NCBI RefSeq assembly: GCF_044324785.1
Contig: NZ_CP172127.1
DNA from: Escherichia coli
Lineage (GTDB): Bacteria > Pseudomonadota > Gammaproteobacteria > Enterobacterales > Enterobacteriaceae
Reading direction: 5' to 3' (one strand)
Length of the DNA stretch: 64,000 nucleotides
A program made the position numbers and the translations under genes. Shown here one piece after another: positions 12,855 through 42,374 of the stretch (positions are counted from its first letter, which is position 1; each line of letters opens with the position of its first letter). Below the pieces are notes generated by a model, which was given only the letters and a program-made list of their open reading frames with translations, was not told where the DNA came from and made no database searches.

Positions 12855-12871
12855 TTACCGTTGAGGTAATA
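12855..12871. promoter_or_regulatory. operator-like palindrome TTACCGTTGAGGTAATA (leftward early promoter region)
   Basis: TTACC-N5-GGTAA; between the repressor gene 3' end and the leftward operon. Confidence 0.55.
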
Positions 12872-12917
12872 ATTATGCGTATATGGTTTGATGTCAATAG
12901 ATATGAGTTAAAAAAAT

Positions 12918-12932
12918 TACCCGTTAGGTAAT
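12918..12932. promoter_or_regulatory. operator-like palindrome TTACCCGTTAGGTAA
   Basis: Second site 63 bp from the first. Confidence 0.55.
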
Positions 12933-12940
12933 CGAATAGG

Positions 12941-12966
12941 CAATAAAAAAGCCGCCATAAGGCGGC
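12941..12966 (-). terminator. rho-independent terminator after the repressor gene
   Basis: GCCGCC-ATAA-GGCGGC hairpin; on the minus strand it is followed by TTTTTTATTG. Confidence 0.6.
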
Positions 12967-12988
12967 TTACTTACTGAAAAATATGATT

Positions 12989-13573
12989 TTATTGTTTGTT
13001 TTTTTCGTTCTGGTTGATGACAAATTCAATGTAACTTTCGATCTTTGCTTTCTCGGTTTCGGGTAACAAAGCGTAGCGCGAGCGGTCATAGTTGATAGTC
13101 GCAGGGTCGTGCGGGTGAATCAGTAATTCATAGCCGTGACGCCCGAATGCGGATGCAACATTCTCCAGGGTGGAAATGGAAACGCTGACCTCATTGTTTA
13201 ACAGGCGGCTGATTGTCACCTGGGCGACGCCGGATGCGCGGTGAAGTTTTCCCTGCGTTGAAAGGTCGCGGCTTTCGCTCATCCAGCGTTCCAGGTTGTG
13301 AGCCGCCAGTTGACCAATGTCGCTTGGTCCGACAGGCTGAAAACCTTCCTGAGAAAGCGAGCGATCGATATCAAGCCAGTTACGGGGTTTATTGGCGGCA
13401 GCTTCAATTTTTCGCGCAACCTGGTCGCCGATAACCTTCTTGCCAAGAGCCCAGCGGTTTACCAGATTTGCCTGAGTTCCAAGTTTTTCAGCCATCCGCG
13501 TCTGAACACCATTGAATTCACGGTCGATCAAGTCGTTGAGATTTTGCCTGCGGACGTCCTGGATACTTTTCAT
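12989..13573 (-). CDS. prophage repressor candidate (two helix-turn-helix regions, no obvious autocleavage domain)
   Basis: 194 aa; HTH-like segments QTRMAEKLGTQANLVNRW and SGVAQVTISRLLNNE; divergent from a Cro-like gene with three operator-like palindromes between them. Confidence 0.6.
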   Translation of the reverse strand: MKSIQDVRRQNLNDLIDREFNGVQTRMAEKLGTQANLVNRWALGKKVIGDQVARKIEAAANKPRNWLDIDRSLSQEGFQPVGPSDIGQLAAHNLERWMSESRDLSTQGKLHRASGVAQVTISRLLNNEVSVSISTLENVASAFGRHGYELLIHPHDPATINYDRSRYALLPETEKAKIESYIEFVINQNEKNKQ

Positions 13574-13628
13574 TTTCTGGAAAATCGCCTCATATCTGAA
13601 TCAGAAGATGATTCAATTTAAAGCAATA

Positions 13629-13643
13629 TTACCCAACAGGTAA
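13629..13643. promoter_or_regulatory. operator-like palindrome TTACCCAACAGGTAA (site 1, repressor/cro intergenic)
   Basis: Perfect 5-bp arms. Confidence 0.6.
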
Positions 13644-13645
13644 AT

Positions 13646-13660
13646 GCACCTCATGGGTAA
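13646..13660. promoter_or_regulatory. degenerate operator-like site GCACCTCATGGGTAA (site 2)
   Basis: Right arm conserved; left arm has two mismatches. Confidence 0.4.
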
Positions 13661-13677
13661 CTATCCTTGATTTTTGT

Positions 13678-13692
13678 TACCTTATAGGTGAA
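13678..13692. promoter_or_regulatory. operator-like palindrome TTACCTTATAGGTGA (site 3), overlapping the putative rightward promoter
   Basis: TTGATT (13668-13673) -N16/17- GAATAT; the site overlaps the spacer and -10. Confidence 0.5.
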
Positions 13693-13727
13693 TATTTATT
13701 ATCTGAAATAAATATCAGGCAATAGCT

Positions 13728-13958
13728 ATGAGCGATAACGGACATTTCGATTTCAAAAAGCACTGGCTTGCACTTACTCCGGATGAGCGTGAAGCCTTCG
13801 CACAGGAAGCCGGAACGACGAGTCACTATATCCAGACTCACTTAACAGGTAAGCGCAAAATGCCAGGTAAGGTATTGATGGATGGGCTTTTTAAAGCCTG
13901 TAAATCAAGACAATGGCTGCGCTCAAAAGCAGAACTGGCATACTTCTTCTACTCATGA
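13728..13958 (+). CDS. Cro-like small regulator
   Basis: 76 aa; divergent from the repressor gene; followed by a terminator. Confidence 0.55.
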   Translation: MSDNGHFDFKKHWLALTPDEREAFAQEAGTTSHYIQTHLTGKRKMPGKVLMDGLFKACKSRQWLRSKAELAYFFYS

Positions 13959-13979
13959 TATCCAGCCACAACCCTCTGT

Positions 13980-40733: not shown

Positions 40734-40753
40734 GGAAAACTCCTGATGTGCTT

Positions 40754-40921
40754 CTATTTGGAGCGAAATGCCGCCTTGAAGTCGCTGAAAGATGTTCCTG
40801 TCTGGTAAACCATATCCTTGTCGCGCTCTTTGCTTGCGCGGCCAAGCATAACTTTTCCAATGACATCCCAGCATTGCTTGGCTTGTTCATTGTGCTGAGT
40901 ACGATTTTTCAACGCTGTCAT
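40754..40921 (-). CDS. hypothetical small basic protein (55 aa), first gene of the moron operon
   Basis: AGGAGG-N6-ATG; MTALKNRTQHNEQAKQCWDVIGKVMLGRASKERDKDMVYQTGTSFSDFKAAFRSK; not in the track; hand-translated and frame-checked codon by codon. Confidence 0.4.
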   Translation of the reverse strand: MTALKNRTQHNEQAKQCWDVIGKVMLGRASKERDKDMVYQTGTSFSDFKAAFRSK

Positions 40922-40933
40922 ATCGCGCCTCCT

Positions 40934-40950
40934 TTACCTTTAAGGTAATA
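40934..40950. promoter_or_regulatory. operator-like palindrome TTACCTTTAAGGTAATA overlapping the -10 of the moron promoter
   Basis: Minus-strand promoter candidate TTGCAG (40971-40976) -N17- TACTAT (40948-40953); the palindrome spans the -10 and the transcription start. Confidence 0.5.
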
Positions 40951-41006
40951 GTACGCTATTCACCCACAGTCTGCAATCTGTACAGAATTATTTAAAGGCA
41001 CATCCC

Positions 41007-41270
41007 TGTGCCACCGCCCGTCAGAAGAACCCTGCTTTGTCGTTGATGTACTCCGCGTGCGTCTGGATATCACGCAGGCATTTGCTCACACCGACGATGT
41101 AGCAGAACATGGTGGTCAGCTCCGCCGCCGCGCCCGATACGTCGTGCCCGTCTTCCTGTAACTGGTTCAGCAGATTCATCAGCAGTGAGTTCTCCGTCAG
41201 GCCGAGAACACCAGACGGCGAATGAATCAGGCTGCGGTAGCCGGGCTTCAGCGGGGCGCTGTAGGTTTTG
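41007..41270. repeat. ~265-bp direct repeat, copy 2
   Basis: About 97% identical to 8101-8365. Confidence 0.85.
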
Positions 41271-41713
41271 TTCTCTATCTTCATCGCCTGCATTACTGCT
41301 GACGCCGTGGCGTTGGCTACCTGGTCGGCAACCATCTTTATGCGTTCTTCCTGCGGGAGCGAGTTTTTAATGTAACTTCCGGTGCGACGGATCTGAGGAA
41401 GAACCTCACCTGTAACCCATTCAAGAAATCTGAATGCTCTCGTTCCCTCTGTCATTGCCTCTTTGCAACGCAGAATAAGGATGTAGAGACCTGATTCTGA
41501 AACGATGGATAGTTCTTGTATTCCACCAGGGGTCTGTATTGAATACAGCCCCTTTTTGTTCCAGCCTTTTTTATCAAGTTTTCTCGCTTGTGTAACATCA
41601 ATATTCAAAGCATTGCACACATCTTTGGTGACAAACCAAGGTTCTCCGTCAATCATGAACATACGGATCTGGCAGGATGACTCAAAGGAAAAGATGGAAG
41701 GTTTGGTATTCAT
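41021..41713 (-). CDS. antirepressor with N-terminal BRO-N-like domain and shared C-terminal domain
   Basis: Start at MNTKPSIFSFESSCQIRMFMIDGEPWFVTKDVCNALNI... (AAGGTGA RBS); C-terminus near-identical to the 8115-8765 protein. Confidence 0.7.
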   Translation of the reverse strand: MNTKPSIFSFESSCQIRMFMIDGEPWFVTKDVCNALNIDVTQARKLDKKGWNKKGLYSIQTPGGIQELSIVSESGLYILILRCKEAMTEGTRAFRFLEWVTGEVLPQIRRTGSYIKNSLPQEERIKMVADQVANATASAVMQAMKIENKTYSAPLKPGYRSLIHSPSGVLGLTENSLLMNLLNQLQEDGHDVSGAAAELTTMFCYIVGVSKCLRDIQTHAEYINDKAGFF

Positions 41714-41964
41714 GGCGATCACCTTTGTAGTTAGGTTAATCACCACCGCTGAGACCAATCAGATGGTGGTGAACTGTGCAGAGTTGGTCTTACCGGCTAC
41801 AAAGGAACCCGGCGCACCTTTCGGTGCCCCCACACAGCCCACCATAGAATAGGTGCGCTTTACACATAAAAAAACCGCTTATGCGGCATATGTGCCTCTG
41901 TAGTAATCCGGGAGACCAATCCCGGCACTGGATTTTGCCAGTGCCTGATTACTATGGCACAAGA

Positions 41965-42005
41965 GGAGTGCTTATATTTACCGCAAAGGTAAATATAAGC
42001 ACTCC
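41965..42005. repeat. 41-bp perfect palindrome (18-bp arms, 5-bp spacer) GGAGTGCTTATATTTACC-GCAAA-GGTAAATATAAGCACTCC
   Basis: Exact inverted repeat; the TTACC-N5-GGTAA operator-like core (41978-41992) sits at its centre. Confidence 0.9.
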
Positions 42006-42023
42006 AGTTGGTAATTACAAACC

Positions 42024-42299
42024 TTATCTGGTTTGTTTTCGTAATTGTTCGGCACAATAGTCTAGATGTGTTTGCAGATCCTGCATAGACATCTGTGAGC
42101 TGGTGACGTAGTTAATCAGTGCAGTCAGTTCGGCAAGTGGGCCATCGACATTAAATCCATCCTTATCGAGATCCCGGAGTAATTTCATCAAGTGCGATCC
42201 CTCCACCAGTGACCTGACGCCTCCCGGCGTGTGAATCCTTTCGGTAAATCCGTCTTCCAGTGGATAGTGATACTGCTGCATCTTATCTTCTCCATGCAA
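42024..42299 (-). CDS. small protein homologous to the antirepressor C-terminal domain; candidate SOS-controlled antirepressor
   Basis: 91 aa; YHYPLEDGFTERIHTPGGVRSLVEGSHLMKLL...AELTALINYV...LQTHLDY parallels YSAPLKPGYRSLIHSPSGVLGLTEHSLLMNLL...AELTTMFCYI...IQTHAEY of the two Ant proteins; a LexA box lies immediately upstream. Confidence 0.55.
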   Translation of the reverse strand: MHGEDKMQQYHYPLEDGFTERIHTPGGVRSLVEGSHLMKLLRDLDKDGFNVDGPLAELTALINYVTSSQMSMQDLQTHLDYCAEQLRKQTR

Positions 42300-42300
42300 T

Positions 42301-42320
42301 AACTGTATAAATATACAGTA
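42301..42320. promoter_or_regulatory. LexA box (SOS operator) AACTGTATAAATATACAGTA
   Basis: CTGT-N8-ACAG with an AT-rich spacer, 18 of 20 to the consensus TACTGTATATATATACAGTA as I recall it; 2 bp upstream of the 42299 start codon. Confidence 0.65.
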
Positions 42321-42357
42321 TCAAATAATTTGTTTGCTATCCAGCACGTTTTGCAAA

Positions 42358-42374
42358 TCACCTGAAAGGTAATA
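42358..42374. promoter_or_regulatory. operator-like site TCACCTGAAAGGTAATA upstream of the tailspike gene
   Basis: One mismatch in the left arm; part of a composite module with CATATGTGGTT (42402-42412), GGTAATA (42418-42424) and a TAGAAT -10 candidate (42423-42428). Confidence 0.5.

Follow-up and report, generated by a model that had tools for sequence, protein, structure and literature searches.

Repressors that act through dispersed operators are established in phages P1 and L5. The C1 repressor of P1 has 22 dispersed operators, which are asymmetric 17-mers (ATTGCTCTAATAAATTT) (PMC8546580), and in the immI region it represses the c4-icd-ant operon, for which the C4 RNA provides a second lock (PMC8198154). 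The repressor of L5 and Cluster A phages uses more than 20 genome-wide sites that silence the prophage beyond its early promoters; these stoperators are asymmetric 13-mers, bound by monomers and orientation-dependent, and they are scattered within operons in short intergenic gaps (PMC9283540). In the genus Uetakevirus, the RefSeq record of phage epsilon15 (NC_004775.2) contains seven features labelled 'protein_bind: repressor, lysogeny' that correspond to ATTACC-N5-GGTAAT. They lie upstream of terS, of the gp3/portal operon and of the tail fibre gene, at the leftward early promoter (PL; three features) and before the post-replication operon. The repressor (Rep) of phage SPC32H consists of an N-terminal DNA-binding domain, a middle dimerisation domain that looks like a helix-turn-helix (HTH) and a C-terminal domain for tetramerisation and antirepressor binding, and its tetramer binds palindromic DNA (PMC9986798, PMC9638917); of the mechanism by which this repressor acts, one structural paper says that it 'has not been extensively characterized' (PMC9986798). 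Here we analyze the palindrome TTACC-N5-GGTAA in a phiV10-like Uetakevirus podophage that is integrated at the 3' end of guaA in Escherichia coli (contig NZ_CP172127.1), using a stretch of 64,000 nucleotides that we refer to as the window. We predict that the palindromes are operators of the prophage immunity module and that Rep directly silences each terminator-insulated transcription unit through them, a reading to which we assign a probability of roughly 0.7.

The palindrome is enriched in the prophage and lies between genes

The prophage spans positions 6624-47387 (40.8 kb), as delimited by copies of the attachment (att) core ATTGAGTGGGAATGATT at 6624 and 47371. Nine perfect copies of TTACC-N5-GGTAA are present in the window against 0.03 expected, a number that none of 100 shuffles reached, and all nine (starting at 12855, 12917, 13629, 15960, 16022, 20286, 23431, 40934 and 41978) fall between the two att cores. 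With up to one mismatch the whole window has 18 sites, where 1.0 would be expected. Within the prophage, the counts at no more than zero, one and two mismatches are 9, 15 and 40, compared with 0.05, 0.64 and 11.4 in 200 dinucleotide shuffles, none of which comes near the prophage count; the one-mismatch sites start at 6774, 13677, 14014, 20304, 42358 and 45587. Moreover, when all 5-mer palindromes with spacers of 0-12 were counted blind, TTACC-N5 came first in the prophage, with nine copies against four for the runner-up. On a gene map that we constructed ourselves from open reading frames (ORFs) and the phiV10 annotation, the centre of 14 of the 15 sites with up to one mismatch is intergenic, although intergenic DNA makes up 8.7% of the prophage (binomial P = 2e-14). 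The remaining site, 45587, lies in a coding ORF and is probably a chance occurrence, and we count 14 sites in the window as credible operators. The repeated, promoter-proximal palindrome that a preliminary description had noticed from the sequence alone is thus confirmed, and the positions that it listed are correct to within one base (12918 becomes 12917, and 13678 becomes 13677).

One-mismatch matches are noisier than the shuffles imply. The host flanks contain three of them against 0.38 expected, and an unrelated E. coli phage contains six, every one in coding DNA. Taken alone they are weak evidence, so our argument is built on the perfect sites, on where they lie and on how well they are conserved. 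One of the host copies, TTACCTGTTTGGTCA at 61916-61930, lies over the apparent start codon and ribosome-binding site (RBS) of a minus-strand host gene and is the only near-site in the host flanks that is not within a long ORF; it is probably there by chance.

Sites occupy the same positions throughout Uetakevirus

The palindrome also ranks first in five further Uetakevirus genomes, with 8 perfect copies in phiV10, 9 each in Tyrion and Klebsiella phage BUCT711, 10 in SPC32H and 11 in epsilon15, compared with no perfect copy in three unrelated or distantly related control phages of similar size. Each Uetakevirus carries 13-18 sites with up to one mismatch, and in six genomes these fall into the same 9-10 clusters. 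Across four lineages the half-sites have pairwise identities of 0.99-1.00, against 0.52 for the spacers and 0.58-0.60 for the 10-bp flanks. Because the sites were ascertained by the motif itself, the informative part of this comparison is that independent scans hit the same positions.

Spacing is conserved as well. The PL pair is 62 or 63 bp apart in all six genomes, the offsets of 17 and 30/31 bp within the triple at the right operator (OR) recur in epsilon15 and SPC32H, and the 18-bp offset of the terS pair is conserved in the genus. One site precedes the portal operon in every Uetakevirus genome, and the ant/tailspike region has either a single site or two that are 380-412 bp apart. In front of a DUF1064 or RuvC gene is a pair spaced by exactly 62 bp. 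The gene that follows this pair is not the same in all genomes, yet in each of them the second member of the pair covers the RBS and start codon (GGTAAATCATG). Other positions vary between genomes: the site past the terminator of the cro-like gene (14014) is kept in phiV10, Tyrion and BUCT711 and absent from epsilon15 and SPC32H, and the lysis-cassette site common to the relatives is absent in the window. There, the interval 45234-45453 before the lysis cassette is without the (T/C)CACC/TTACC-N5-GGTAA site that is present in phiV10, epsilon15, Tyrion and SPC32H.

In alignments, sites in the window occupy positions homologous to the repressor annotations of epsilon15, among them 23431 ahead of the portal operon and 42358 ahead of the tailspike gene. 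Since RefSeq already marks these homologous sites as repressor-binding, the feature is largely known, and the sites cannot be regarded as a new observation. The phiV10 record contains no repressor-binding features. Literature searches with the motif, the genus and the phage names returned no operator definition for Uetakevirus, the epsilon15 genome paper and the primary SPC32H papers being outside their reach; a paper on LF82 that appeared to be a lead on the motif was a false one, as it matched primer sequences only.

Distant relatives confine the same half-sites to the immunity region

Outside the genus, PseuP_224 (Pseudomonas), CharmingMan (E. coli) and pOW20-A (Psychrobacter) encode a repressor whose N-terminal domain is homologous to that of Rep (34-40% identity), and a homologous Cro-like protein is encoded in each as well. 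Arrays of TTACC-N4-GGTAA or TACC-N5-GGTA lie between their repressor and cro genes. Whole-genome scans of these three phages found 4-5 sites, all at the left operator (OL) and OR, within about 1 kb of the repressor gene. Related half-sites are also present in the repressor/cro intergenic region of Moraxella phage Mcat9 and of H-19B, for which about 3 kb each was read. The half-site is therefore tied to the repressor/Cro module family.

The prophage shares the lambda-type layout of PseuP_224, CharmingMan, pOW20-A and H-19B, which combine a homologous DNA-binding domain, a Cro-like partner and (T)TACC/GGTA(A) half-sites with a two- or three-site OR array between divergent repressor and cro genes and a two-site OL array on the opposite side. 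Here too, palindromic arrays flank the repressor gene (12855/12917 and 13629/13646/13677), and the pattern is that of operators belonging to the immunity module of the phage itself, as had been supposed. Of the three operators proposed between the repressor and cro-like genes, 13629 is perfect and 13677 has one mismatch, whereas 13646 is weak, with two. The relatives differ in having an N4 spacer in two of three cases and longer repressors annotated as cI or CI-like, and PseuP_224, CharmingMan and pOW20-A carry Q-like antiterminators. Their operators are confined to the immunity region, whereas here nine further sites lie 0.4-29 kb away. The contrast with lambdoid confinement drawn in the preliminary description is thus real, because three phages with homologous modules keep the same half-sites at OL and OR, and operator dispersal is a Uetakevirus-specific expansion of a lambda-type OL/OR module.

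These comparisons bear on whether the palindromes could be binding sites of a host transcription factor, compositional or chance palindromes, or RNA hairpins that need no protein. The hosts of the six Uetakeviruses are all Enterobacteriaceae, and the moderate excess of one-mismatch matches seen in host-flank DNA and an unrelated phage would fit such an origin. However, perfect sites are missing from 23 kb of host flank and from the three other phage genomes, the shuffles do not approach the prophage count, and the half-site accompanies the repressor/Cro module into Pseudomonas, Psychrobacter and Moraxella phages. As the half-site follows the immunity module across very different hosts, a host factor is excluded; hairpins of 5 bp with 5-nt loops are too weak to act as RNA, save at the 41-bp palindrome described below. 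Taken as a whole, this group of explanations is very improbable.

Rep and the Cro-like protein are candidate binders

The repressor of the prophage, which is identical to gp40 of phiV10, matches SPC32H Rep (PDB 5D50) over its full length (E = 4e-42), the only match that a sequence search found among PDB chains. It had been read as a two-HTH repressor candidate, but in the solved homologue the second of these is there for dimerisation (PMC9986798) rather than for reading DNA. Overall identity among the four Rep classes is only 43-78%, yet their N-terminal helix, NLVNRW, is invariant, which fits a shared operator. In phage ZX5, lytic growth was blocked when an identical repressor was overexpressed, and the mRNAs for holin and endolysin fell by more than 99.9% (PMC9782041). 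This overexpression result indirectly supports the prediction that Rep binds the sites and represses the adjacent promoters.

The second candidate is gp41, the Cro-like protein. We considered whether the dispersed sites serve mainly gp41, as a tuner or timer of operons in the lytic phase, with Rep acting essentially at OL and OR. This protein is 59-84% identical over four lineages, has an invariant helix (AGTTSHYIQxHLT) and matches transcriptional repressors in PHROG, and in all of the distant relatives TTACC/GGTAA operators occur together with a homologous Cro-like gene. In those relatives the recognition helices differ while the half-site remains (T)TACC, and the Cro-like protein is always present. 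However, in those phages the operators stay at OL and OR although the Cro-like protein is there, so that this protein does not account for dispersal. The change in Uetakevirus lies in the C-terminal part of Rep, now made up of dimerisation and tetramerisation domains (PMC9986798); pairs of sites in fixed phase suit a protein with two DNA-binding pairs, and overexpression of Rep alone abolishes late-gene mRNA (PMC9782041). A principal role of gp41 at the dispersed sites is therefore unlikely. The two readings are not mutually exclusive, and the natural model would be that Rep and gp41 both use the same operators.

Site-by-site anatomy

The positions of the sites, associated promoters and regulatory genes are listed in Table 1. 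Promoters and terminators were called as consensus matches, which are not enriched over shuffled sequence.

Table 1. Predicted operators and associated features of the prophage (window coordinates)
Feature	Positions	Strand	Sequence or type	Context
Near-operator	6774-6788		TTACCTTAAAGGTAT	Upstream of int, overlaps TATACT -10-like hexamer; same GGTAT mismatch at homologous position in 6/6 genomes
OL-proximal operator	12855-12869		Perfect	Abuts -10 and covers start region of leftward PL
Leftward promoter PL	12897-12869		TTGACA-17-AATTAT	Strong promoter by consensus
OL-distal operator	12917-12931			Between rep terminator 12949-12968 and PL; 62 bp from 12855
rep	12989-13573	-	194-aa repressor	Identical to phiV10 gp40
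OR cluster	13629-13691		13629 perfect, 13646 two mismatches, 13677 one mismatch	
Rightward promoter PR	13674-13702		TTGTTA-17-TATTAT	-35 and spacer overlapped by 13677
Cro-like HTH protein, gp41 of phiV10	13728-13958	+	76 aa	Candidate second binder of same operators
Operator	14014-14028		One mismatch	Just past cro-like terminator 13980-13999, upstream of replication operon
Operator	15960-15974			Occupies spacer of promoter-like TCGATA-16-TAAAAT (15953-15980)
Operator	16022-16036			62 bp downstream of 15960; over RBS/start-codon DNA of 16040 gene (GGTAAATCATG)
Operator pair	20286-20318		Perfect + one mismatch (20304)	18-bp offset; between terminator 20249-20266 and probable terS start
Operator	23431-23445			Upstream of gp3/portal structural operon
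Asymmetric element	23486-23515		CATATnnGGTT-N5-GGTAATA	Before structural operon
Hybrid half-operator	23493-23507	+	TGGTT-N5-GGTAA	Within invariant promoter-like block; 23431 lies exactly 62 bp upstream
Operator	40934-40948			Between promoter-like GTGGCA-16-AATAAT (41014-40987, minus) and Shine-Dalgarno of 55-aa ORF (40921-40754)
ant2	41713-41021	-	Bro-N::Ant fusion antirepressor	C-terminus 43% identical to small Ant
C4 antisense RNA	41849-41762	-	Rfam full-length, 78.6 bits	
isrK-like small RNA	41944-41868	-	Rfam full-length, 74.7 bits	
Operator	41978-41992			Centre of 41-bp palindrome; just downstream of promoter-like TTGTAA-17-TATATT (42020-41992, minus)
ant	42024-42275	-	Small antirepressor	85% identity to epsilon15 gp19; same position as SPC32H ant
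LexA box	42303-42318		CTGTATAAATATACAG, perfect	ant promoter region; invariant in six genomes
Operator	42358-42372		One mismatch	Divergent ant/tailspike region; in spacer of TTGCAA-16-TATCTT
Asymmetric element	42401-42430		CATATnnGGTT-N5-GGTAATA	Before tailspike gene
Hybrid half-operator	42408-42422	+	TGGTT-N5-GGTAA	In block CATATnnGGTT-N5-GGTAATAGAAT, 50 bp downstream of 42358

Consensus promoters overlap sites at PL, at PR, at 15953-15980 and at 42020-41992. Both 41978 and 42358 are associated with promoter-like elements, and at 42358 the register is -35, one base (N1), operator, -10. By comparison, 16022, 20304 and 40934 lie over DNA that encodes an RBS, downstream of promoter-like sites. 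The preliminary description had taken such positions as occlusion of the RBS, which a protein bound to DNA cannot bring about; a protein at these three sites could only block elongation, as a roadblock, or act as the partner in a loop. No sites were found from 23431 to 40934 (17.5 kb, mostly the structural operon) or inside the early-left operon.

The 41-bp palindrome that had been noticed around 41978 is confirmed, at 41965-42005, with 18-bp arms and a 5-bp centre (18+5+18). Its centre is inverted relative to phiV10 (20484-20524 in that genome), reading GCAAA here and TTTGC there, while the arms are identical; the extended arms are limited to the phiV10 lineage. As RNA, the sequence would form an 18-bp hairpin of -30.6 kcal/mol (z = -10).

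With the TTG start of terS given in the phiV10 record (window 20240), the gene would include both the operator pair and the terminator 20249-20266. ATG 20318/20321, which follows a conserved GGTGG, is the window counterpart of the start used in epsilon15, and the phiV10 start is probably mis-annotated.

A second, asymmetric element, CATATnnGGTT-N5-GGTAATA(A/G)(A/T)(A/T)T, occurs at exactly two intergenic places per genome in 6/6 genomes, and a full operator always lies 62 or 50 bp upstream of it. The element can be read as a promoter, TyCATA-17-TAGAAT or TAATTT, with a half-operator in the spacer. These elements are probably late promoters with an embedded half-operator, or else an activator site. 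We rejected ATGTGGTT as a separate enriched motif, since it occurs three times against 2.3 expected; only the longer GGTT-N5-GGTAA at its fixed positions is meaningful.

The asymmetric element raises the question of whether the palindrome is itself a positive element, either an activator site or a promoter core with GGTAAT(A) as -10, that switches operons on. Its right half often precedes a TA-rich, -10-like sequence (GGTAATAAAAT, GGTAATAAT, GGTAATAT), the related asymmetric element stands ahead of both late operons in 6/6 genomes, and the prophage encodes further candidate regulators, namely gp55 and the PerC-like and AlpA-like proteins. Several features speak against this. Both half-sites are equally invariant, which a directional promoter would not need, and the distance from TTACC to the putative -10 is unsuited to a -35/-10 pair. 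Moreover, the positions of the sites relative to promoter-like hexamers vary (start region, -35, spacer, RBS DNA or about 60 bp upstream) and include the classic OL/OR positions flanking the repressor gene, as in the relatives. An activating role for the palindrome is quite improbable.

A proposed mechanism for silencing of the prophage

Most of the transcription units have a terminator ahead of them (12949-12968, 13980-13999, 20249-20266, 41874-41887 and others), and the annotated records of phiV10 and epsilon15 list no N- or Q-type antiterminator. Under our preferred reading, that Rep silences the prophage unit by unit, this combination would be the reason why every unit has an operator of its own, placed at its promoter or beside it. 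The units concerned would be PL, PR together with the repressor's own promoter (PRM), the replication operon, the operon from the DUF1064 gene to gp55, terS-terL, the structural operon, isrK-C4-ant2, tailspike/ant and int. The suggestion that the motif marks essentially every operon start thus applies to nearly all terminator-insulated units, with the lysis cassette as a unit that has no site.

In this model, each palindrome would be bound by a pair of Rep N-terminal HTH domains, and the 76-aa Cro-like protein would probably share the operators, as in other phage switches. In the lysogen, Rep tetramers would sit on all clusters and shut every unit directly. As a Rep tetramer provides two DNA-binding pairs, operator pairs in fixed phase would likely be bridged into small repression loops, of 62 bp at PL and at the DUF1064 and portal promoters, of 50 bp at the tailspike and possibly of 380 bp around ant. 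At the late promoters, the full operator would recruit the tetramer and the second DNA-binding pair would engage the hybrid site. Upon DNA damage, LexA would leave the ant promoter and Ant would strip Rep from the DNA, so that all units would open together. Our analysis shows the enrichment, the location and the conserved positions of the sites, the homology of Rep, Ant and the LexA box, and the tie of this family of DNA-binding domains to TTACC/GGTAA half-sites; what we infer is actual binding, which protein acts where, looping and repression of the late operons.

A more far-reaching version is that the OL/OR module has been turned into a loop-based, genome-wide silencing network that replaces the antitermination cascade and includes the two hybrid half-operators (xGGTT-N5-GGTAA). 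The mutual dependence of about 15 sites would then also explain why operator specificity has been frozen in the genus despite divergence of Rep to 42% identity. We regard this version as tentative and rather doubtful; such a network was not found in the literature that we reached.

Several observations count against direct silencing of each unit by Rep. The promoter calls are no more frequent than in shuffles, and the consensus scan detected no recognisable sigma-70 promoter over the sites 20286, 23431 and 14014. A scan of the prophage for an operator at the lysis cassette found none. For looping, the indications are the spacing and the tetramer structure of a homologue. Finally, gp41 is at least as conserved as Rep and is present with the half-site in every relative, so that Rep and gp41 are not separable computationally at the dispersed sites.

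The antirepressor region and an immI-like module

The LexA box at ant leads us to expect induction through LexA and Ant, rather than through cleavage of the repressor. Downstream of operator 41978 are, in order, isrK, C4 and the gene for the Bro-N::Ant fusion, a module that is lacking in epsilon15 and SPC32H and that may be under Rep control, judging by the position of the operator. The idea that immunity specificity is set by Ant-Rep pairing was rejected, since Ant is 85% identical between the window phage and epsilon15.

The site at 40934 precedes two genes, the 55-aa ORF and then a gene of about 145 aa. Neither has a PADLOC match, and the larger one also has no Pfam match. They had been described as a two-gene moron; with the operator lying between the promoter-like site and the Shine-Dalgarno sequence, they are more likely to be silenced in the lysogen than expressed as morons.

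Spread of the prophage and other features

In its immunity and replication region the element is 98% identical to phiv142-3, PAS61 and phiV10. The immunity region 12840-13730 (rep, OL and OR) is present at an identity of at least 95% in 538 of 5,426 complete E. coli genomes, nearly always on the chromosome. The prophage is without an O-antigen acetylase gene near the lysis cassette, and the tailspike region (42-46 kb) has a low G+C content of 41%.

Other observations concern individual loci. A tRNA-Arg(TCT) gene (23032-23108, minus strand) and the counterpart of the phiV10p04 ORF (22851-23102, plus strand) overlap at the end of this ORF; the tRNA is annotated in SPC32H, and the phiV10 record has the ORF alone. 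In the early-left region, between a methyltransferase gene and the next ORF, positions 8806-8895 (minus strand) match the Rfam family sRNA-Xcc1 at 64.8 bits, above the gathering score. Inside the DnaT-like replication gene, 14630-14761 contains 2.6 perfect copies of a 24-bp tandem unit flanked by 18-bp and 12-bp repeats, and because these repeats look like iterons we propose it as a probable replication origin. At 19858-20266, the last early-right gene, gp55 (a PHROG 'transcriptional regulator'), is followed by a promoter-like site (20196-20225) and the terminator 20249-20266, a layout just ahead of the late genes that resembles lambda Q-PR'-tR'. Searches of NCBIfam gave no match for gp55, gp41, Ant or the PerC-like protein, and gp55 also has no Pfam match.

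Relation to known systems and implications

Functionally, the closest known system is P1 C1 and, less closely, the L5 stoperators, while by descent the prophage carries a spread lambda-type OL/OR module. As in P1, a single repressor is predicted to use operators at the promoters of separate operons (here 9-10 clusters), and the repressor would be inactivated by an antirepressor rather than by cleavage (PMC8546580, PMC8198154). Like immI, the isrK-C4-ant2 module is an operator-controlled operon with a C4 antisense RNA upstream of ant, although its control by Rep is here a prediction. The P1 operator differs in being an asymmetric 17-bp sequence, whereas the sites in the window are 15-bp palindromes suited to paired HTH domains, and P1, whose prophage is a plasmid, has a dedicated late activator. 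Sites 16022, 40934 and 20304 recall L5 in being placed downstream of promoters, so that a protein bound there could act only as a roadblock or through a loop; unlike stoperators, the motif is palindromic, free of orientation and found at operon starts only.

Within the genus, epsilon15 has the same motif at homologous positions, and the Rep, Ant and LexA box of the SPC32H switch (PDB 5D50/5D4Z), in which a LexA-controlled antirepressor inactivates the tetrameric Rep, are homologous to those in the window. The epsilon15 record marks seven sites compared with 14 credible ones here, the additional ones being at OR, int, the terS partner, the post-cro position, 40934 and 41978. Of these, 40934 and 41978 are lineage-specific and tied to the isrK-C4-ant2 module, which epsilon15 and SPC32H do not have. 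Conversely, the epsilon15 lysis-cassette site is missing in the window, and the window Rep is only 42% identical to that of epsilon15 and SPC32H.

Since the sites carry an annotation in a sister genome, and P1 and L5 are established examples of repressors with dispersed operators, the prophage does not define a new category. What our analysis adds is a map of 14 sites for the phiV10 lineage, the conserved 62/50-bp phasing with its hybrid sites, the contrast with relatives whose operators are confined to OL and OR, and an immI-like module under operator 41978. The prophage family to which this regulatory logic applies is very common; among its members are the O157 phage phiV10 and the Salmonella phages epsilon15, SPN1S and SPC32H. 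Direct repressor control of each operon, with release by a LexA-controlled antirepressor, would set this family apart from the lambda cascade and bring it nearer to P1. The operator map would aid the reading of prophage transcriptomes, the engineering of phiV10-type reporter phages and tests of paired sites for tetrameric repressors.

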